From positions 3,030,001 through 3,062,000 of the forward strand of contig JAIZWK010000001.1 in assembly GCA_021498095.1 (NCBI GenBank): a stretch of DNA of 32,000 nt. Direction: 5' to 3'. The position numbers were made by a program, and so were the translations under genes. This DNA is from Candidatus Harpocratesius repetitus. Lineage in GTDB: Archaea > Asgardarchaeota > Lokiarchaeia > Sigyniarchaeales > Promethearchaeaceae. This document shows positions 12,121-26,720 of this stretch, piece after piece. Under the pieces are notes generated by a model. That model did not search any database. It was not told the DNA's origin and saw only the letters and a program-made list of their open reading frames with translations. The first letter of the stretch is position 1. Each line of letters starts with the position of its first letter.

Positions 12121-12210
12121 ATGCCCGCGTCTGAAACATCTATTCTTATTTCTATATCAACGGAGTTGTTTAAGATCATCTCAGGCGCTATTATTCAAAT
12201 TATCGCATAA
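12121..12210 (+). CDS. Putative Ile-rich leader peptide of ileS (MPASETSILISISTELFKIISGAIIQIIA)
   Basis: ATG...TAA, 29 aa, 9 Ile including three Ile-Ile pairs, 292 nt upstream of ileS on the same strand. Confidence 0.7.
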   Translation: MPASETSILISISTELFKIISGAIIQIIA

Positions 12211-12352
12211 CACTTTTCATTGGCTCCCTAAAATTATCTTGTTTCAGACGCAAGTATTAATATTAAACACTATCAAAAAGAAATTAAATTTCTTATTCAT
12301 TTGTTAGGGAGATCAAAGTCAATGAAATCAGATGAATAATTCTGAAATAAGA
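12121..12352 (+). promoter_or_regulatory. Putative attenuator with alternative helices in the ileS leader
   Basis: Complementary pairs read directly from the sequence: 12127-38/12240-51 (12 bp perfect), 12215-31/12304-27 (9+8 bp), 12237-48/12341-52 (12 bp, one G-U), 12293-303/12329-39 (11 bp, one G-U). Confidence 0.6.
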
Positions 12353-17739: not shown

Positions 17740-18510
17740 GTGAAAAATTCAACTGAAATGCGGATTTCTCATCATTTTCAATACAATCACTCAGATTGTA
17801 CCATTATTTCGAATAACCGAGAGAATATCGAAAAATCTAAAGCCAAATTTTATAATGATATTAAAGAACTCGAAAATTTTGTTAATATTCATAAAGATTG
17901 GAGAAACTCATATATTCCTCTTCTAAGTCAACCTGCAGCTAATAAAAATTCATTAATTTATACAATGGAACAAGCCAGTCTTAAATGTAATGTTGGACCA
18001 ATGGCAGCTGTTGCTGGTGCAATAGCAGATAGAATGGTTTCAGCAATGATTCAAAATCCAAAAACAACCATCGCTGTAGTTGAGAATGGTGGTGAAATTT
18101 CCATAAATTCTAAAGAAGATATTATTATTGGATTAATGGTTTTATCAACAACATTACAATCAAAACTCGGTTTTAGATATAAAGGTGGGACAAGACCAAT
18201 TGGAGTAGCAACCAGCTCATCTACTTTCGGTCATGCAGAGAGTTTTGGAGAAGCAGATGCAGTAGTGGTTTTTGCCTCTAATGCGGCTTTAGCAGATGCA
18301 GCTGCAACCTATATTTGTAATAATGTTAAGGGAAAAGAGGATAAAGAGGCAATAAATGCAGGTTTGGAAGTATTTGATTCAATTCCACAATTATTAGGTG
18401 TATTAATAGTAAAAAATCAGCTGATTGGAAAAAAAGGGAAATTACCTACTCTAATCAGAATCAAAGATGAAAAGAATATTCTACTGCAAAAAAAAATTGA
18501 AAATATATAG
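17740..18510 (+). CDS. UPF0280 / COG2122 ApbE-like protein (MA1715-type sulfide-assimilation factor)
   Basis: GPMAAVAGAIAD, VENGGEI, TSSSTFGHAESFGEADAVVVFA, AALADAAAT. Confidence 0.88.
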   Translation: MKNSTEMRISHHFQYNHSDCTIISNNRENIEKSKAKFYNDIKELENFVNIHKDWRNSYIPLLSQPAANKNSLIYTMEQASLKCNVGPMAAVAGAIADRMVSAMIQNPKTTIAVVENGGEISINSKEDIIIGLMVLSTTLQSKLGFRYKGGTRPIGVATSSSTFGHAESFGEADAVVVFASNAALADAAATYICNNVKGKEDKEAINAGLEVFDSIPQLLGVLIVKNQLIGKKGKLPTLIRIKDEKNILLQKKIENI

Positions 18511-18567: not shown

Positions 18568-18777
18568 TCATGTTATGTAAAGTGCTCGGCGAGGACATGC
18601 ATCTAAACATAACATACATCCTTTACAATTTTCAGCTTTGAATAAAAACGAATAATTGTTGTCAAAACTCAATGCTCCGAATCTACAGTACGATGTACAC
18701 CAACCACATTCAACACATAAGTCTTTATTAAACTGTATCGATTTTTTGTTGATTTGTGCTGAGTTCATATTATGCAT
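18568..18777 (-). CDS. 2x[4Fe-4S] ferredoxin, MA1822-like partner of the homocysteine synthase
   Basis: CVECGWCTSYC and CKGCMLCLDACP motifs. Its start overlaps the stop of the COG1900 gene, with GGAGG upstream. Confidence 0.85.
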   Translation of the reverse strand: MHNMNSAQINKKSIQFNKDLCVECGWCTSYCRFGALSFDNNYSFLFKAENCKGCMLCLDACPRRALYIT

Positions 18778-19894
18778 CCTCCAATTGATAAGTTTTAAAA
18801 CTTTGTTTTATTGACAAATTCTGGATGGGTTTGATAATTGGAATTCTTTTTTCTTCAACCATTTTTTTTAATAATCTTGTAATAATACGGGCTTTCCTAT
18901 AGGATGAAGTGGATGAAACAGGGACAATCTTTCCATCTATCTCAATTTGTCTTGATTTTAACTCAGCATAAGACACACTACGAATTAAAGGGCGTTCTCT
19001 TTTTCCTGTAGAATAATCTAAAACATTAGTAAATATTTCACTATCAGGTGTACCGCTTGTTCTTGCTAGAGATTCATTCAAAATAGGAATTGGAATACCT
19101 AATCCAATAAAGCAACTATATCCATAACCCTTTAAAAATGCACCTGCAAGAAATTCTGGAGTCATTTTCTTTAAATCCCCTGATACCATTAAATTACCCC
19201 ATTCTGATTCAGGATTATGTTGAGTTCCAGAACCGATGATATGTCCAACCGTACCACCTAAAAAAACAGGAGTTCCAATTCCTATTGTTTGATAAGTTGG
19301 ATCATTGTTTAATGGAGATAATGTGCCTACACCTCCATATGTACCATTTTGATACTTGGGAAGAAGTTTCCCCATATAAGTATACAATATTTCACCAGAT
19401 GAATTAACTGCACAAATATATTTTTGATATGCATTACGGGGATTGATCATTATTGCTTGATTAAAATCTTGAAGCCCTAAAGAAACATCAAATGATTTTC
19501 GAGGATAGCAATCAGTTCCAGTCCCTGTAGAGTGAATTGACACATTTTCTCCTTTGACCAGTTTTTCGAGAACGTGACCCCCACCAACTTTATCAAAAAC
19601 TCGACTACCTTGAGTTACACCTAAATAACAATCAGCTGCAGCATTTCCATGATACGCATTTACTCCATCAATTTCAATAGTTTCAATTTTGATTGGTGGA
19701 TCAGGCTGTGGTAAATTAAAGAATACACCGCTTGAACACATACAACCAAATGTTCCAGTGGTAACAACATCTACGGCTTCTGCAGCATATTCCACTCCTT
19801 CTTTCTCAACCAATGAAACCATTTCTTCTGCTGTTAATATTACTGCAGTCCCATCATGAATTTTTGAATTAATATCTTCATATGTTTTCTCCAA
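18770..19894 (-). CDS. L-aspartate-semialdehyde sulfurtransferase / homocysteine biosynthesis protein (COG1900/DUF39, MA1821/MJ0100-type), without CBS domains
   Basis: KTYEDINSKI..GTAVILTAEEM, VDVVTTGTFGCMCSSG, NPRNAYQ, SPLNNDP..TIGIGT.VFLGG. TTG start preceded by GGAGG. Confidence 0.9.
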   Translation of the reverse strand: MEKTYEDINSKIHDGTAVILTAEEMVSLVEKEGVEYAAEAVDVVTTGTFGCMCSSGVFFNLPQPDPPIKIETIEIDGVNAYHGNAAADCYLGVTQGSRVFDKVGGGHVLEKLVKGENVSIHSTGTGTDCYPRKSFDVSLGLQDFNQAIMINPRNAYQKYICAVNSSGEILYTYMGKLLPKYQNGTYGGVGTLSPLNNDPTYQTIGIGTPVFLGGTVGHIIGSGTQHNPESEWGNLMVSGDLKKMTPEFLAGAFLKGYGYSCFIGLGIPIPILNESLARTSGTPDSEIFTNVLDYSTGKRERPLIRSVSYAELKSRQIEIDGKIVPVSSTSSYRKARIITRLLKKMVEEKRIPIIKPIQNLSIKQSFKTYQLEDA

Positions 19895-19896
19895 TT

Positions 19897-21381
19897 TTAT
19901 TCCTCCGTTTTCTTTTTTGCATAACCATCTTTATTGCACTCATCAGAAAATATTAGATTTATTTCATTTGCAACTATTGGAATAAATTCACGATTAAGAA
20001 CTATCGAAACAGTTATTCCATTATAATCTTGCAAAATTCCATGAATTTGTATTCCATGCTTTTTTAAAATTTGTCCAATCTTTGAAACAATTTCAGCTTG
20101 GTAAAAAGATTCAGTTATGATTGTAATGATTCCAACTGATTCTATGCTAATTTTTAACCATTCCCTTTGTATCTGTGATTTATAACAAAATTCTTCCAAT
20201 TTTTTTCTGATATTTGAATCTTTAGAGCATAATAATAACCTATTTTGAGAAAATGTTTGCTGAAAGAGTGAAATATGCCAATTTTTTTTAATGAAATATG
20301 AAAATAATTCCATTAGGAATGTTGATTCTTGGAATAGAAATGGGGATTTGAGAATTATTAAGTAAGAAGACTTTGTTATTTCAATCCCTTTTATAGGAAT
20401 TTCCATGCTTTGTGATGAAATATAGGTAAAATTTGAACTCTTTGGTTTATGAAAATGACGTATTTCAATGGGAATCATTTGATCTTCAATAATGCTTATA
20501 CATTTTGGATGTAGAATTTTAGCTCCAAGAACTGCAATTTCTTTTGCTTCTTTATAATTGAGTTTTTGAATTAAATGTGGATCTTGAATATATTCAGGAT
20601 TACCAGAAAGTACACCAGGAACATCTTTCCAAAGGATAATTCTTCCCTCGTGAAAGAGATTCAAGTCAAATAGCATACGACCAATGATGGTAGCTGTAAA
20701 ATCACTTCCACCCCTTCCTAATGTAGTGGTATAGCCAATTTTATTTCGACCAATAAAACCTGTGATTACAATAACTTGATGATTTCGATTATTTAAGAGT
20801 AATGGAAGTAATTTTTGGTTAATACGAGCTTGCGTGTGTTGAAGATTAGGAATTGCCTTATTATATTCGCTGTTTGTAATGATTAATTCTTCACCAAAAA
20901 ATACTGATGAAGTAAAGTTTTCTTGTTTTAAATATAAATTAACCAAAGTAGCGCAAAGTTTTTCACCAAACGACATTACATAATCGATAAAATAAGGAAT
21001 TATTCCAAATTCTTCCACTTCTTCTAAAACTTTTGCAAGCTGATGTAATATAAGTTGGAGTTCTCCTTTGGCACTGTTAGTTACCTTAAAATTCTCTTCA
21101 AATAATAAATCAATGTACTCTTCATGAATTTCTTCGATTTGTTTTAAACGAGAAATTACATCATGTCCAGATCCTTTACTCGCTAAATTGGTTACTTCAA
21201 TTAATAAGTCGGTTACTCCTTTCAATGCTGAAACTACTAAAATAATAGAAATAGGAATGCTATTTTGTTGATAGTATGTCCGAATAATGCTTTTAATCTG
21301 CTTAAAATCAGAAGGTTCAGTTAAACACGACCCACCAAATTTCATAATAAATACTTTATTAGGATTTTCTTGTTCATTCAT
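19897..21381 (-). CDS. ask: Aspartate kinase with C-terminal ACT-like region
   Basis: MKFGGS, VVSALKGVTDLL, SFGEKL, TTLGRGGSDFTA, WKDVPGV. The start overlaps the asd stop (ATGA), with AGGAGG upstream. Confidence 0.92.
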   Translation of the reverse strand: MNEQENPNKVFIMKFGGSCLTEPSDFKQIKSIIRTYYQQNSIPISIILVVSALKGVTDLLIEVTNLASKGSGHDVISRLKQIEEIHEEYIDLLFEENFKVTNSAKGELQLILHQLAKVLEEVEEFGIIPYFIDYVMSFGEKLCATLVNLYLKQENFTSSVFFGEELIITNSEYNKAIPNLQHTQARINQKLLPLLLNNRNHQVIVITGFIGRNKIGYTTTLGRGGSDFTATIIGRMLFDLNLFHEGRIILWKDVPGVLSGNPEYIQDPHLIQKLNYKEAKEIAVLGAKILHPKCISIIEDQMIPIEIRHFHKPKSSNFTYISSQSMEIPIKGIEITKSSYLIILKSPFLFQESTFLMELFSYFIKKNWHISLFQQTFSQNRLLLCSKDSNIRKKLEEFCYKSQIQREWLKISIESVGIITIITESFYQAEIVSKIGQILKKHGIQIHGILQDYNGITVSIVLNREFIPIVANEINLIFSDECNKDGYAKKKTEE

Positions 21382-22583
21382 TGATTTTTCCTCCTAATAA
21401 TTCCTTTAGCATAAAGATATTCTGCATTAAGAACTGCACCTCTCCCTGCACCCAATTCAGTATTATGAGATAAAACGGTCATTTTAAAACCTTTTTCAAA
21501 GTTTGTGGGTTCTAATCCACCAATAAATGTAGTCATACCAAGAGATCGATCTACTAATTCTATTCTGGGCTGAGGTCTATCTCTTTCAGCAGATGAAAAG
21601 AGATGGATGGGTACTTTGGGATAATTGGGAAGATTCATACCATTAATTGTGTTTCCTTCCTTATTTTGATTAAAATCATCAAAACATTGCCGAATTTCTT
21701 CTTCGGAACAGTCAATTTTTGTTTGGAAAAATATTGATAATAAATGACCCTCTAAAACAGGAACCCGATTACATTTAGAGTCAATTTTAAATTCTGGATA
21801 AATAAAAATCGATTTTTCTGAAATACTATTTATTTTTTCCTGAAATCCATCTTTACTTATTTTTGCAAATATTTTTTTTATTTCATAATTGACTTTCTTT
21901 TCTTCTTCAGGAATATAAGGAATAATATTGCCGATTATATCATAAGCACTCACACCAGCATATCCTGCTCCACTAATTGCTTGCATTGAAACAACATTCA
22001 CAGATTGTAATCCAAATTTACGAAAAATTGGATATAACGCAATAGCAAGACCAACAGTAGTACAATTTGGACCAGGACAAACAAATCCTCGAGAATTGTT
22101 GATATATCTTTGGATTTCAAATGCTTGGAAGTGAGATCCATTAATAATAGGAAGAAATATTGGAATTTCTGGTTTATAACGCGCCCATGATGCAGTTGAA
22201 AACACAGGATAGTTTTGAGCTAACAAGGGTTCGAGTTCTGCTGCATATTCTGAAGGAATTGCAGAAAAAATTATATCTATTTCTTCTTTATTTATGTCAT
22301 CTGGTGATTTTACAATCATCTCAGCAATTTCTTTTGGCAAATATAGATTTGAAGTACCTCTTCGACCATATTTATATTTTTTTCCTACTGTTCCAAAACC
22401 ATGAAGTGAAGAAATTTGAAACCAAGGATGTTTAACTAAAGCTTCGACTATAGATTGCCCAACTAATCCAGTACAACCTATTATTGCAGCTTTCAACTTT
22501 TGCTTAGGATTTAAAGTTATAGTTACTAAAGGATTTTCTTCTTTCATATTTTCTGGATTTTTATTTTTATTTTCTTGATTCAT
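21378..22583 (-). CDS. asd: Aspartate-semialdehyde dehydrogenase, archaeal/fungal type
   Basis: IIGCTGLVGQ, PNCTT (catalytic Cys), SMQAISGAG, RVPVLEGH, SHNTELGA (catalytic His). Confidence 0.95.
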   Translation of the reverse strand: MNQENKNKNPENMKEENPLVTITLNPKQKLKAAIIGCTGLVGQSIVEALVKHPWFQISSLHGFGTVGKKYKYGRRGTSNLYLPKEIAEMIVKSPDDINKEEIDIIFSAIPSEYAAELEPLLAQNYPVFSTASWARYKPEIPIFLPIINGSHFQAFEIQRYINNSRGFVCPGPNCTTVGLAIALYPIFRKFGLQSVNVVSMQAISGAGYAGVSAYDIIGNIIPYIPEEEKKVNYEIKKIFAKISKDGFQEKINSISEKSIFIYPEFKIDSKCNRVPVLEGHLLSIFFQTKIDCSEEEIRQCFDDFNQNKEGNTINGMNLPNYPKVPIHLFSSAERDRPQPRIELVDRSLGMTTFIGGLEPTNFEKGFKMTVLSHNTELGAGRGAVLNAEYLYAKGIIRRKNQ

Positions 22584-22590
22584 TGTTATT

Positions 22591-22599
22591 TCTCCTTCT
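22591..22599 (-). promoter_or_regulatory. Shine-Dalgarno-like site of asd (AGAAGGAGA)
   Basis: Purine-rich GGAG 7 nt upstream of the asd ATG. Confidence 0.65.
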
Positions 22600-22630: not shown

Positions 22631-22804
22631 TTCTGAAATCAAAATGCTATCGATTCATTTCAGAACTTAATACTTGTTCCAAAATTATGTTTATAGAGAT
22701 AATCTAATGGAAATGCACAGAAAATTGATTCTATCGCCCAGTTCTCATCGGCGATACTTTCTGTGTTCAAGCACAATCACAAAAGAAGAGAGAGCGATCG
22801 AATC
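22631..22804 (-). promoter_or_regulatory. Putative attenuator with mutually exclusive helices between the Met leader and asd
   Basis: Segment 22792-804 pairs with 22727-39 (12 of 13 positions). This competes with the hairpin 22750-56/22732-38 plus 22758-65/22716-23. A separate 9-bp hairpin lies at 22657-65/22631-39. Confidence 0.7.
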
Positions 22805-22812
22805 TTGTTTAC

Positions 22813-22896
22813 TTATGCCATTACCATTAACATGGACATCATCATCATGGTCGATGGCATCTGAGACATCATTTGCATATCCCACATGCTTCCCAT
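22813..22896 (-). CDS. Putative Met-rich leader peptide (MGSMWDMQMMSQMPSTMMMMSMLMVMA) of the asd-ask-homocysteine operon
   Basis: 27 aa with 13 ATG codons including a run of four, ending 229 nt upstream of asd on the same strand. An in-frame upstream ATG at 22932 would give 39 aa. Confidence 0.85.
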   Translation of the reverse strand: MGSMWDMQMMSQMPSTMMMMSMLMVMA

Positions 22897-23052
22897 GATT
22901 GTTTCTAGGTAAACATTAGAATCGAATCGCATTCTTATTTATTTTGTATAAAGCATACTTTAAGAAATTATTGATGGAAATAAAATATGATAAATTTTAG
23001 TTAAACGTCAATATTTCAAATGTCAAAATAACATTACTAAATAAATGATCGC

Positions 23053-23391
23053 TTAACCACCACCAATCGGAGGAAATATTGCCACAACCGATGGATTCTC
23101 TTCAATTCGAGTTGCAAGTGCTAATTCTGAAAATAGAATGCGGCCGTTTAAAATAATTTTAACATACTTTTTTAACTGTTCAGGTTGAGTTGAAAAATCA
23201 ATTATTTCTTCTAAAAATTCCCGATTATAGAGAATTGATTGTGAAATCTCATCTAACAACTCTCTTATCGTGATTCCTTTTGAAACAGAATAAATACGTT
23301 TTTTGAATTTTGTCAATGGGCGTAGATTTGCAAAAACTCGAACTTCGACTGAAACTCTTTCACTTATTTCTTCATCTACTTTAGAATCCAT
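23053..23391 (-). CDS. moaD: MoaD/ThiS/SAMP ubiquitin-like sulfur carrier
   Basis: VEVRVFANLR beta-grasp start, ILNGR, and C-terminal VAIFPPIGGG. Confidence 0.85.
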   Translation of the reverse strand: MDSKVDEEISERVSVEVRVFANLRPLTKFKKRIYSVSKGITIRELLDEISQSILYNREFLEEIIDFSTQPEQLKKYVKIILNGRILFSELALATRIEENPSVVAIFPPIGGG

Positions 23392-23490
23392 TTTTTATCA
23401 TTCATTCAATTAAATACTTCAAATTTAAGATATCATCGTAATATAGTATATAACTTTAATCATTTATTTATATCATTTTAATAGACTAAA

Positions 23491-24798
23491 TTAAATATCA
23501 AATAAACATTTAACAAACCCAACACTATAAAGACATTCATTACAACCAGGAGTATTTCCATAACAATCGCTTGAATTATCGGTAATATAATAACAATTTT
23601 GAGTGGAATATACACAATCTCCACAGAATGGTACCTGCCTGGAAATAGAATTTAAAACAGAATGAATCCGTTTTACTTTGCTTGACTGTAATATATCTTT
23701 GAATGAAATATTTGGATCATTAAGATTTCCCAGAATATAGGGTTTTACTAATCGTTCATGATGATTTATAACAACTTTATGTTCATGACCAAAATTATAG
23801 CATGGAATAACATTTCCATCAAATGAAATAAATAATCCATTACGAGCTGCAAATGGACATTCTCGCTGAGTTGATTCTGCAAAAAGTGGAGGTAAATCTA
23901 TCAGAATATGATTTTTTTCTGCTAAATTAGAGATTTCTTTAAAAACACGTTGAGCATTTTTAATCGTTTGCTTCTTTTGAATAACATCCATAATTTTTTG
24001 TAAATCGAAATCAATATTATTTATCTGGGCTTCAGAAATAGAATTTAATATTTGCTGGATTTGAGAATTGTGCTCAGAATTTATAAATTTATGATAATTA
24101 GGGGTAAGAATTACTTGATTTAATATTTCCCAACCTAATTCTCCAATTTTATCTAATAAAGTAAATGCATCAGCTGATATTGGAAGAAATAAAGAATCTT
24201 TTTCCATTTCAACAGTGTAAGGAAGAAGATGAGATAGAAATATTTTTGGAATTCCCATCTCTGCACAAAATTCAACCAAATATGAAAGATCATACAGATT
24301 TTGCTTTGATACAACCGTTTCAATTGCAAGATCGGGAATTTTTCCTGATTGATATGCTTCAGCTAAAACCTTTAAATTTTTAAATACTTCTGGATTGAAT
24401 CCTTCTCGCATTTTGCGACTCTTGGCTAAAAATGGTGAATCAACTGAAATAATAATTCGATCTACCTTATATTTTAAGATTTTTTCAAGAAAGTCTGCCG
24501 TCAACAAAGATCCATTACTAGTAAATTCAATCTTTGCATGAGGAGGAAGATAAGTCCGTGATATATCCAAAAGGGTAAGAAAATTTGGATGTGTAAGTGG
24601 TTCACCAACACCATATAAAATAAGATGATCTAATCCAGAAAATACTTCTTTAGCAATTTTTGTAAATAAATCGATTGATATCTCATTACGCTCTAGAGAA
24701 TTTTGAGCATGTAGGCACATGGCACAATCAAAATTACATTTAGTGGTGATCTCAATTTGTAAGGTTTTCAAAGAGAACGAATTCATTAATAACTTCAC
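23491..24798 (-). CDS. Radical SAM/SPASM protein, tungsten-cofactor oxidoreductase maturase type
   Basis: EITTKCNFDCAMC (CxxxCxxC), YGVGEPLTHP, FTSNGSLL, Cys-rich C-terminus (CPF, IPCY, CGDC, SDCYGNTPGCNEC), directly downstream of aor. Confidence 0.85.
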   Translation of the reverse strand: MKLLMNSFSLKTLQIEITTKCNFDCAMCLHAQNSLERNEISIDLFTKIAKEVFSGLDHLILYGVGEPLTHPNFLTLLDISRTYLPPHAKIEFTSNGSLLTADFLEKILKYKVDRIIISVDSPFLAKSRKMREGFNPEVFKNLKVLAEAYQSGKIPDLAIETVVSKQNLYDLSYLVEFCAEMGIPKIFLSHLLPYTVEMEKDSLFLPISADAFTLLDKIGELGWEILNQVILTPNYHKFINSEHNSQIQQILNSISEAQINNIDFDLQKIMDVIQKKQTIKNAQRVFKEISNLAEKNHILIDLPPLFAESTQRECPFAARNGLFISFDGNVIPCYNFGHEHKVVINHHERLVKPYILGNLNDPNISFKDILQSSKVKRIHSVLNSISRQVPFCGDCVYSTQNCYYITDNSSDCYGNTPGCNECLYSVGFVKCLFDI

Positions 24799-24854
24799 TA
24801 ATAAAACGTAATAAAAAAAGAAAAGGATTAAGATCTATATGTGATTTTAAATGA

Positions 24855-26720
24855 TTACTTAATCCCCAATTCTGCCAACTTTTCTGGTTTTGGCACACCA
24901 CGATCGTCCCAACCACGTAATTTATAATATTCTTGGAGCATCTCATCCAATTTAAACACTTCGCCCTTCGATGGACCTTCCGGAATTGGTTCTTCAGATA
25001 GTCGCTTGGGTAAAAAGTCTTGGCCGACAATTCCGAGTTTTTCCATAATAACGCGCTGAAGATTGTAAGTACGCTCACCAACTGTCAAAACTGTCTCTGC
25101 TTTTATATCCCAACCCGTGACTGCACTCATTAATGCTGCAAAATCATCAGCACCTAAAGCAAATGTAGTGAATAAGCAGTTTACAGTACTATTGACAGCA
25201 GCAGTAAAATCCTGGAAAATCTTCACCCAAGTGGGTTTCACTTTATAATCTAAACGATCAATTTGCTCAGGTAATCCAACTACTTCAGGACTTACAGTAT
25301 ATCCAGTTACATGACAACCTCCTCGATTTGCAGTAGCATAATTTAGACCAATTCCCTTAATTCCACGAGGATCGTACGCCGGCATTTCTAGTTTTTTGGC
25401 AGTCATACTTAATTCAGGATGACCGTAGGAATTTGCTAAGTGATATGAACCCATATACAATTTTTGACCAAATCCTTCTCCTTTACCCATCAACTTGATT
25501 GCATCAACTAAACCTTGACCACTTCCAAATTTAAGATCTAAACCAGCATAGTCATCTGCTGGAATAAATCCTTTTGTTGCGAGTTCCATGGCCGCTGCGA
25601 CTGTAGATCCTGCAGAAATTGTATCAAGACCATATTCATCGCAAATATGATTTGCCATAATTATTGCAGGCATATCATAAACACCACAAGAACTACCAAA
25701 TGCCCAAATTGATTCATATTCAGGTCCTTCAGTTTCTGCGATTTTAAACGGACCTTCATCAACTTTAGAAGCTCTTCCACACGCGATTGTGCAACCCCAA
25801 CATGGATTTCGCTTACGTAGGTATTTTTCAGTAAGGGTTTCTCCACTAATTTTTTCTGCGTTTTCGTTATGTGAAAATTGCCAATTCTTTTCAGGAAGTG
25901 CGCCGATATTGTTAACAATATTTACCAAAACTGCAGTTCCATAGGTTGGTAAACCAGTACCTGTGACTCCATTTTCTTTCATTTTTGTAAGTAGAGATTT
26001 TGATATTTCTTTAAATTTCTCTTGATCTGCAACTTCAACTTTCTGATTTCCCCCAGTAACAATAGCTTTTAAATTCTTTGATCCCATAACTGCACCTACA
26101 CCTGTTCTGCCGGCAGCTCTATGTGCGTCATTCACAATACAAGCAATTGGTGAGAGTTTTTCTCCTGGAGGTCCGATACATGCAATGCTTATCTTAAAAC
26201 CAACATTTTCATATTCTTTCAAAAGTGCATCATTGGTTTCAAATACGGTTTTGCCCCATAAAGAAGTTGCTTCTTTAATCTGTACGGTTCCATTGAATGC
26301 TTCTAAGTACACTGGCGAATCCGCTTTTCCTTCTATAATAATTCCATCAATTCCTGCCTTTTTCAAAAATGCACCAAATTTACCCCCTGAATTTGAAGAT
26401 CCGATTGAACCTGTCAAGGGAGATTTTAAAGTCATTACATGGTGACGTCCAGGGCTTGGAAAACCGGTGACCCCGGTTCCTGGTCCAGTTCCAAAGAAAA
26501 TTAAATTGTCCGCGGAAAAAGCATCAAAATCTTTCAAATTAATACCATTCGCTTCCAGTTTTTTTACTTGATCCCAAATAAATTTTGTTCCTAAACCAGC
26601 ACCACCCCAAAATTGTTGAAATATTTCAAGGGGAATTTCTTCAAGAGCAACAGATTTATTTGAAAGATTTATTCGATATATTTTACCCATTATTCCATTT
26701 CCCATTTTAATTACCTTCAT
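24855..26720 (-). CDS. aor: Tungsten-dependent aldehyde:ferredoxin oxidoreductase
   Basis: KSPLTG, GRTGVGAVMGSKNLKAI, CWGCTIAC Fe-S motif, EGPEYES, DEYGLDTIS, AYDPRG, RGGCH. Confidence 0.95.
   Translation of the reverse strand: MKVIKMGNGIMGKIYRINLSNKSVALEEIPLEIFQQFWGGAGLGTKFIWDQVKKLEANGINLKDFDAFSADNLIFFGTGPGTGVTGFPSPGRHHVMTLKSPLTGSIGSSNSGGKFGAFLKKAGIDGIIIEGKADSPVYLEAFNGTVQIKEATSLWGKTVFETNDALLKEYENVGFKISIACIGPPGEKLSPIACIVNDAHRAAGRTGVGAVMGSKNLKAIVTGGNQKVEVADQEKFKEISKSLLTKMKENGVTGTGLPTYGTAVLVNIVNNIGALPEKNWQFSHNENAEKISGETLTEKYLRKRNPCWGCTIACGRASKVDEGPFKIAETEGPEYESIWAFGSSCGVYDMPAIIMANHICDEYGLDTISAGSTVAAAMELATKGFIPADDYAGLDLKFGSGQGLVDAIKLMGKGEGFGQKLYMGSYHLANSYGHPELSMTAKKLEMPAYDPRGIKGIGLNYATANRGGCHVTGYTVSPEVVGLPEQIDRLDYKVKPTWVKIFQDFTAAVNSTVNCLFTTFALGADDFAALMSAVTGWDIKAETVLTVGERTYNLQRVIMEKLGIVGQDFLPKRLSEEPIPEGPSKGEVFKLDEMLQEYYKLRGWDDRGVPKPEKLAELGIK

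Follow-up and report, generated by a model that had tools for sequence, protein, structure and literature searches.

The 32,000-nucleotide (nt) stretch of DNA analyzed here (termed the window herein; positions 3,030,001 to 3,062,000 of the forward strand of contig JAIZWK010000001.1, assembly GCA_021498095.1) comes from the Asgard archaeon Candidatus Harpocratesius repetitus, whose genome is a single contig of 4,361,485 bp with a GC content of 31% (labeled G000; coordinates without this label are those of the window). On its minus strand, the window carries an operon (18568..22583) whose genes were assigned with Pfam: asd, encoding aspartate-semialdehyde dehydrogenase (21378-22583; Semialdhyde_dh); ask, encoding aspartate kinase (19897-21381; AA_kinase, with the size of an aspartokinase); a HcyBio/COG1900 gene (18770-19894; HcyBio, E value of 8e-123); and a gene for a 69-amino-acid 2x[4Fe-4S] ferredoxin (fdx; 18568-18777). 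An earlier note on this DNA, made from the sequence alone, had named asd, ask, and COG1900 as the downstream genes, which the Pfam matches bear out, and the same gene order follows in relatives. Upstream of asd, on the same strand, lies a small open reading frame (sORF) that is very rich in methionine codons. This sORF and the RNA around it are the subject of this report; they may together form a Met-sensing leader that controls the operon.

The Met-rich frame had been read in the earlier note as 27 codons followed by TAA on the minus strand from 22896 to 22813 (MGSMWDMQMMSQMPSTMMMMSMLMVMA), and that reading is exact. The codons run ATG GGA AGC ATG TGG GAT ATG CAA ATG ATG TCT CAG ATG and continue to 22813 with CCA TCG ACC ATG ATG ATG ATG TCC ATG TTA ATG GTA ATG GCA TAA, so that the sequence agrees with the reported composition (13 ATG codons out of 27, an MMMM run, a single Thr, and neither Lys nor Ile), and 229 nt separate the stop from the asd start at 22583, as claimed. 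In a six-frame scan, the leader sORF proved to be the densest in-frame ATG window of the genome, with 11 ATGs in 20 codons compared to 9 for the runner-up. It also ranks first among upstream intergenic sORFs for enrichment in a single amino acid (binomial P of 3e-14; 1.5e-7 for the next), and no other upstream sORF in the genome comes near its enrichment, i.e., there is no genome-wide family of strongly enriched leader peptides. The Met enrichment is far above chance, and because only four ATGs stand in tandem, the sORF is not a simple microsatellite. The stretch that comes second in in-frame ATG density lies outside the window (G000 3120826-3120900, plus strand; MMVMMVIMTMMALMTM...) and is made of GGTTATGAT-like repeats; it adjoins an opposite-strand gene of 776 amino acids, whose 3' end it overlaps slightly, and was not treated as related.

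Orthologous leaders were gathered by way of fetched genome regions, a covariance model, an asd protein search with contig look-up, a peptide-profile search, and a genome scan. Twelve different versions of the leader ORF were obtained, which fall into three clades from two genera of one Lokiarchaeial family. Clade 1 comprises the genome of the window and a 'Ca. Harpocratesius sp.' metagenome-assembled genome (MAG; L329, also termed Harp2), together with G002 and L330, all with 39 codons; clade 2 comprises 'Promethearchaeum sp.' MAGs and metagenome contigs (G007, G012, and L348-L350) with 39 or 40 codons; and clade 3 comprises L331, L333-L335, and G001, with 51, 53, or 55 codons. All 12 versions are located directly 5' of asd, and ask-HcyBio-fdx come next wherever the contig is long enough (including L329-L335); contigs L349 and L350 extend only to asd and the following gene. 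The comparison proposed in the earlier note, a search of other genomes for leaders of this operon, came out as it had expected, in that orthologous asd-ask-HcyBio leaders keep an open Met-rich frame despite sequence divergence.

Of the 14 genomes in the family, 5 proved to have the element, and it was not found in any of the remaining 140 genomes of the order (5 of 154 in all). HcyBio is common across the order, and the asd-ask-HcyBio-fdx arrangement occurs in some relatives only. Within the genus labeled g6 herein, the sORF was not found in genomes G011 and G013, where an HcyBio match was likewise not found. When the covariance model and the peptide profile were run over the order, the weak matches obtained (E values of 0.03 to 1) were not Met-rich sORFs. 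A search of metagenome and genome contigs with the pattern AATGCGATYYGAWTY...ATCGCT was unspecific; among the matches listed, the real ones were L088 (identical to G002) and known genomes.

The comparison also moved the start codon. The ATG at 22896, where the earlier note had the sORF begin, is codon 13 of a longer frame and lacks conservation: P0124 has Leu at this place, and clade 3 has nothing equivalent. A conserved ATG lies at 22932, 36 nt (12 codons) farther 5', and the frame is open from this ATG in all versions. The sORF therefore most likely occupies 22813..22932 (minus strand), with 39 codons plus TAA and 14 Met residues (MRFDSNVYLETIMGSMWDMQMMSQMPSTMMMMSMLMVMA), and the 27-codon version (22813..22896) corresponds to its Met-rich C-terminal two-thirds. 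The longer ORF is favored by the conserved start, by a TATA-like block upstream, and by independent gene callers, which called orthologous sORFs as genes of 39, 40, 51, and 53 amino acids. The promoter-like block (AATAATTTCTTAAAGTATGC; 22953..22972, minus strand) is conserved in the genome of the window, L329, G002, and L330, and its core TTCTTAAAG, a candidate TATA box, is positioned at -33..-25 from the sORF ATG; the box of clade 3, at -31..-24, is a canonical TTTATATA, and genus g6 has TTTTTAAA at -38..-31. No Shine-Dalgarno (SD) sequence precedes either candidate ATG of the sORF (22932 or 22896), whereas asd has a clear one (AGGAG/AGGTG). With a TATA-like box about 25 to 33 nt before the ATG, the promoter geometry suggests that the mRNA is probably leaderless or nearly so.

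Several features indicate that the frame itself has been kept. Over six representative sequences, 58 of the 60 ATG triplets within the sORF are in frame (14 of 15 in the genome of the window, 7 of 7 in G002, 10 of 10 in L330, 12 of 13 in G007, and 7 of 7 and 8 of 8 in clade 3), and the remaining five frames, two sense and three antisense, are interrupted by stops in almost every version. An antisense ORF of 74 amino acids (22674-22898, plus strand) was considered and rejected, as the antisense frames hold stops in every lineage. The lengths of the sORF (39, 40, 51, 53, and 55 codons) differ by multiples of three nucleotides, and close relatives are distinguished by in-frame variants of +3 and -6 nt. 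The amino acid sequence is much freer: close pairs show 6 nonsynonymous versus 1 synonymous codon changes, 17 versus 3, and 7 versus 1, with no third-position bias. The Met share amounts to 13 to 36% in the 12 versions (P values from 3e-4 to 4e-14 per sequence), and single Met positions turn over between versions while the Met content stays high. The residues that do recur across clades are Pro26, a Trp/Phe position, and an xPMx motif. The retention of frame, rough length, and Met load together with a free amino acid sequence points to a regulatory leader peptide, not to a folded micropeptide or to the core of a ribosomally synthesized and posttranslationally modified peptide (RiPP).

A second layer of conservation was found in the RNA. 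The fold of the leader is more stable than that of shuffled sequence (z = -4.7). The earlier note had proposed that the coding region folds back on itself across the Met run; both of the pairings quoted there (AUGCCAU at 22860-54 with AUGGCAU at 22821-15, 7 bp; ACCAU at 22851-47 with AUGGU at 22827-23, 5 bp) are indeed complementary, but they are not the conserved helices. These are formed instead by a set of boxes on the minus strand. Box A (UGCGAUUCGAUUCUAAUGUUUAC; GCGAUUCGAUUC...; 22909..22931) spans codons 1 to 8, including part of the start codon, and provides the 5' arm of a closing helix. Box B (GUAAACAAGAUUCGAUCGCUC; ...GAUUCGAUCGC; 22792..22812) begins 1 nt past the stop and pairs with box A or, alternatively, with box C. 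It is followed by a CU/U-rich tract (UCUCUUCUUUUGUG; 22778..22791), a candidate termination signal or arm of a long B:C hairpin. Farther downstream, box C' (GUAUCGCC; 22750..22757) is the 5' arm of a local hairpin with box C (GGGCGAUAGAAUC; GGCGAUAGAAUC; 22727..22739), which is a near copy of box A, can pair with C' or with B, and is followed by a U tract (AAUUUUCUGUG; 22716..22726). Across the leaders, the box B helix begins 1 to 6 nt after the stop, the distance from the stop to the core is 14 to 18 nt in all lineages, and box C follows 56 to 70 nt after box B.

The A:B duplex (-19 to -21 kcal/mol) closes around the entire ORF, and eight of nine leaders have it in their predicted minimum-free-energy fold. 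The outer core of this duplex is invariant and its inner extension is clade specific: AUGUUUAC/GUAAAC in the genome of the window, GAUUCUUU/AAGGAAUC in G002 and L330, UUCCG/CGGA in genus g6, and GUUUCC/GGGAAGC in clade 3. Cognate A and B arms outperformed every cross-clade combination in all seven rows compared (means of -20.9 versus -14.2 kcal/mol). In an alignment of the eight leaders with 39 or 40 codons, the segments of the A:B helix are 99% and 83% paired, with 5 pairs changed on both sides. For the whole structure of 38 pairs, sliding the partner by 1 to 3 columns lowered the pairing from 84% to 33 to 39%, and none of 500 shuffles matched the covariation score. Box A has its GCGAU core in another codon phase in clade 3 (ATG CAA CGC GAT TG...), so that its conservation is that of an RNA element and does not depend on the peptide.

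The B:C duplex (-13 to -25 kcal/mol) has an AUCGC/GCGAU core that is invariant in all nine sequences; cognate B:C arms exceeded the cross-clade combinations in four of seven rows, with lineage-specific compensation in clades 1 and 2. A C':C hairpin is predicted in the genome of the window, L329, G002, L330, and g6 (-10.6 to -16.7 kcal/mol) and is weak in clade 3. A:B, B:C, and C':C are predicted to be mutually exclusive, as are the alternative helices of attenuators. A run of four or five U residues is aligned between B and C' in nine of nine sequences; another lies 5 to 20 nt past C in the genome of the window, G002, L330, and clade 3 but not in L329 or g6. When RNAalifold was applied to a MAFFT alignment of the nine leaders, box A of clade 3 was misaligned and the B:C core alone was recovered. 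An additional hairpin, which resembles a terminator or an SD-mimic/anti-SD pair and has no equivalent in the genome of the window, occurs in the clade-3 leaders about 90 nt before asd (CCUCC-[14 nt]-GGAGG and then AUUUUGG; L331 around 335-370 and L333 around 2935-2970).

The genes downstream fit a role in Met supply. In G000, asd is a single-copy gene, one MetH-like gene is present (G000 3196652-3199114), and searches of this genome for homoserine dehydrogenase and MetE found neither; the DHDPS family gave a weak partial match only. The aspartate pathway of this genome thus appears to be reduced to the homocysteine branch, and with a sole asd, no homoserine dehydrogenase found, and a MetH-like gene present, the operon looks dedicated to making homocysteine for Met. 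The MetH-like gene has no leader of its own and sits inside an operon.

From these data, we propose that the element is a translated, probably leaderless, Met-sensing leader peptide that drives an RNA switch over the homocysteine operon, a reading to which we assign a probability of roughly 0.62. In this model, ribosome traffic on the sORF would decide whether box A is free to capture box B. With ample Met-tRNA, ribosomes would clear the ORF, A:B would form once B has been made, C' would pair with C, and expression of the operon would stay low. If Met-tRNA were scarce, ribosomes would stall on the Met codons, A:B would be blocked, B would pair with C, and expression would rise. The block could come about in two ways: queued or initiating ribosomes could cover box A at the 5' end of the probably leaderless mRNA, or a ribosome at the last Met codons, which lie 1 to 4 codons before the stop, could cover the inner part of box B. 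Candidate outputs are termination at the U tracts (hairpin assisted or factor dependent), mRNA stability, and translation. Archaeal termination rules differ from the bacterial ones, and factor-dependent termination is possible in archaea.

The sequencing runs listed comprised three of DNA and none of RNA. The model was probed by masked folding. Masking the first ~10 codons switched B from A to C in most leaders, and a ribosome that is queued or retained at the 5' end would therefore be expected to give the B:C state. The classical mechanism with a single stalled ribosome (trpL geometry) is not reproduced by masked folding and was rejected. Sequestration of the asd SD was also considered as an output and rejected: the CU tract after box B pairs with this SD in the genome of the window and in L329, but this pairing is not conserved. 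For the ribosome-mediated attenuation put forward in the earlier note, the conserved Met-rich sORF and the mutually exclusive helices are supporting findings; the classical trpL geometry is not borne out.

A number of observations weigh against the proposed Met-sensing switch. A single ribosome placed on the Met codons caused no consistent change in the predicted fold; this makes the link from stalling to switching hypothetical, and it would require a queue of ribosomes or some kinetic effect. Box A corresponds to codons 1 to 8 and the Met codons are found from codon 13 on, so that a ribosome stalled there would not lie over the first pairing segment. That Met codons also rely on the initiator tRNA complicates the logic further. 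On the output side, a canonical hairpin-plus-U terminator is not conserved, the U runs being short (U4-5), variably placed, and common at a GC content of 31%; box C, in contrast to the 3' arm of terminators in bacteria, has a pairing partner in each of the two states; and the accessibility of the asd ribosome-binding site and start codon (AGGAG; 22581..22596, minus strand) shows no consistent change between the predicted states. Covariation was scored on an alignment that had been fitted to the model, and the lineages compared are related and small in number (three, in two genera); the covariation of B:C is weak in clade 3. The conserved Pro26, Trp/Phe position, and xPMx motif could signal a function of the peptide itself. 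Lastly, the element is known from two genera only, which gives no ground for regarding it as general to Asgard archaea.

Directly upstream of the leader, the window contains genes for an aldehyde:ferredoxin oxidoreductase (AOR), a radical S-adenosylmethionine (SAM)/SPASM protein, and a ThiS/MoaD-like protein with a GG end (23053-26720, minus strand). The genome of the window, L329, G002, and clade 3 have this AOR-radical SAM-ThiS cluster upstream of the leader; genus g6 has a ferritin gene there instead, and its sORF is still with asd. Beyond the other end of the operon, an ORF of 256 amino acids (17740-18510, plus strand) converges on the operon end; it had no Pfam match in the window scan, and its counterparts in the homologous loci, which are syntenic in all three clades, are annotated as PF27030 (AbpE_bact). 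Within the operon (18568-19894, minus strand), HcyBio has 374 amino acids and is followed by the separate 69-amino-acid ferredoxin. Most relatives at the level of the order (L005-L048) have an HcyBio-matching frame of ~490 to 540 amino acids and a ferredoxin-like match several hundred nucleotides downstream, which suggests a fused or extended form of HcyBio.

Other explanations of the same data were weighed. The RNA switch might be read by translation without any specific sensing of Met-tRNA, either through general translation or coupling or through a nascent peptide that senses Met or SAM in the manner of CGS1/MTO1, TnaC, or SpeFL. The masked folds, which flip with occupancy of the 5' end and not with stalling at Met codons, speak for this reading, as do Pro26 and xPMx, conserved in all clades and reminiscent of arrest peptides. 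We nevertheless regard this as unlikely, given that a large number of in-frame Met codons is the one property that these otherwise dissimilar peptides retain and that the turnover of Met positions is what would be expected if selection acted on codon content rather than on a particular arrest sequence. A stand-alone Met-rich micropeptide that acts in trans, by binding metals or oxidants, as a membrane peptide, or as a RiPP precursor for the radical SAM/SPASM protein, appears somewhat less probable still. The radical SAM/SPASM gene does lie two genes upstream in the genome of the window, G002, L329, and clade 3, a few residues of the peptide are conserved, and gene callers predict the sORF as a gene; but the AOR-radical SAM-MoaD/ThiS genes make up a self-contained unit, and in g6, with ferritin and no radical SAM gene upstream, the sORF keeps to asd, which argues against a RiPP precursor. 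The mostly nonsynonymous changes without third-position bias further argue against a folded or recognized peptide, and regulatory leaders typically have, as here, a start codon buried in a coevolving helix with the sequence that follows the stop.

An equally low probability is given to a structured noncoding RNA in which the open frame is incidental, such as a protein-binding leader or a riboswitch for SAM, Met, or homocysteine whose P1 helix would be A:B. What recommends this idea is that nucleotide conservation is highest in the closing helix and the repeated GCGAU/AUCGC boxes, that the sequence of box A is kept in a different codon phase in clade 3, and that the leader folds so much more stably than shuffled sequence. 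The interior of A:B, however, is poorly conserved and varies in length from 120 to 168 nt, unlike an aptamer; no Rfam family matches, a search at E values of ≤10 having returned snoRNA and sRNA matches at chance level only; and an incidental frame would not explain the open frame, the in-frame indels, or the 58 of 60 in-frame ATGs. That the sequence is ATG rich by chance or derives from a repeat, and has no function, we consider highly improbable: the (ATG)4 run and the existence of another ATG-rich stretch at G000 3120826 would be compatible with it, but three clades keep the frame, position, and composition although their sequences have diverged, no more than 4 of the 14 ATGs stand in tandem, and the flanks coevolve.

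A comparable architecture was encountered elsewhere in the window. An Ile-rich sORF of 29 codons, 9 of them for Ile (MPASETSILISISTELFKIISGAIIQIIA; 12121-12210, plus strand), is located ~290 nt upstream of ileS, and its codons 3 to 6 form a perfect 12-bp helix with a segment after the stop (12127-12138 with 12240-12251). In a blind scan of 1,788 upstream sORFs for helices between start and post-stop regions, the Met leader ranked 4th and the Ile leader 5th; the other top-ranking sORFs of this genome-wide scan do not lie beside amino acid genes. The Ile-rich sORF is kept in G002 (MIASEPILCISILTELFKIISGAIIPIIA) and is absent upstream of ileS in genus g6, and its Ile content is by itself not significant in an AT-rich genome. 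It is a separate finding that supports the view of this architecture as a regulatory device in the lineage.

Leader-peptide attenuation in bacteria is a textbook outcome of coupled transcription and translation, and classical bacterial leader-peptide attenuators (trpL, hisL, thrL, pheL, leuL, and ilvL) are the closest functional analogues of the Met leader. Like it, they consist of a short ORF upstream of a biosynthetic operon that is rich in codons for the end product and encodes an otherwise unconstrained peptide, with mutually exclusive helices and a pairing segment right after the stop. The Met leader differs in its Asgard archaeal host, in the amino acid concerned, and in an ORF that is apparently leaderless. 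In addition, the role of "segment 1" falls to the region of its start codon rather than to the regulatory codons, which span ~26 codons; a conserved GC-rich hairpin followed by a U run is lacking; and the shared segment C is the 3' and not the 5' arm of the local hairpin.

Other known systems resemble the Met leader in part. SAM riboswitches and Met T-boxes are the usual bacterial controls of Met genes. The SAM riboswitches (S-box and others) and the T-boxes are likewise cis-acting 5' leaders of Met or homocysteine genes, with a closing helix around the sensor, whereas the Met leader has no Rfam match and no aptamer-like interior and keeps a frame and its Met-codon content instead. In eukaryotes, upstream ORFs (uORFs) and the SAM-responsive arrest of plant CGS1/MTO1 also use upstream or N-terminal translation as a sensor to control a gene of the Met pathway or of an amino acid response; they work through scanning and reinitiation or through a specific arrest peptide, in contrast to the prokaryote-type helices and conserved codon composition of the Met leader. 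In mycobacteria, leaderless polycysteine sORFs (the "Cys ribulon") regulate translation through pairing of the Cys tract with a downstream SD (Canestrari et al., bioRxiv 10.1101/834739). These share with the Met leader a 5'-terminal sORF that is leaderless (as is probably the case here), is rich in the cognate amino acid, and precedes genes for the metabolism of that amino acid, as well as a very stable leader fold and ribosome pausing as the proposed sensor. They differ in that the Met tract does not consistently pair with the asd SD in folds of the full leader, in that the switch proposed here is between A:B and B:C, and in the domain of life.

To our knowledge, no Met leader has been described among leader-peptide attenuators. 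A search of the full-text literature returned neither an archaeal leader-peptide attenuator nor a Met-rich leader peptide from any organism, although absence there is not proof. According to a survey from 2010, leader-peptide systems were known from Proteobacteria and Actinobacteria only before that survey added the Firmicutes (PMC2965389). Whether leader peptides sense tRNA charging in Asgard archaea, with the Met leader as the first archaeal and first Met-specific case and the ileS sORF as a second member, is in our judgment evenly poised. On this view, the sensing helix would be built from the start region and the post-stop region of a leaderless sORF. The distribution is narrow, with two genera, and the regulatory role is a proposal.

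If the proposal is right, Promethearchaeaceae would possess a small, lineage-specific set of leaders that are read by ribosomes, and archaeal ribosomes together with RNA folding would set the output of an operon according to the supply of an amino acid. The leader of ~220 nt would offer a mutable test bed for coupling, leaderless initiation, and termination in archaea. It would also illustrate that ORFs of 39 to 55 codons in Asgard intergenic regions, which annotation misses or labels "hypothetical," can be functional. Such control would be found in the lineage closest to the eukaryotes, where the sensing of amino acids by uORFs is common.

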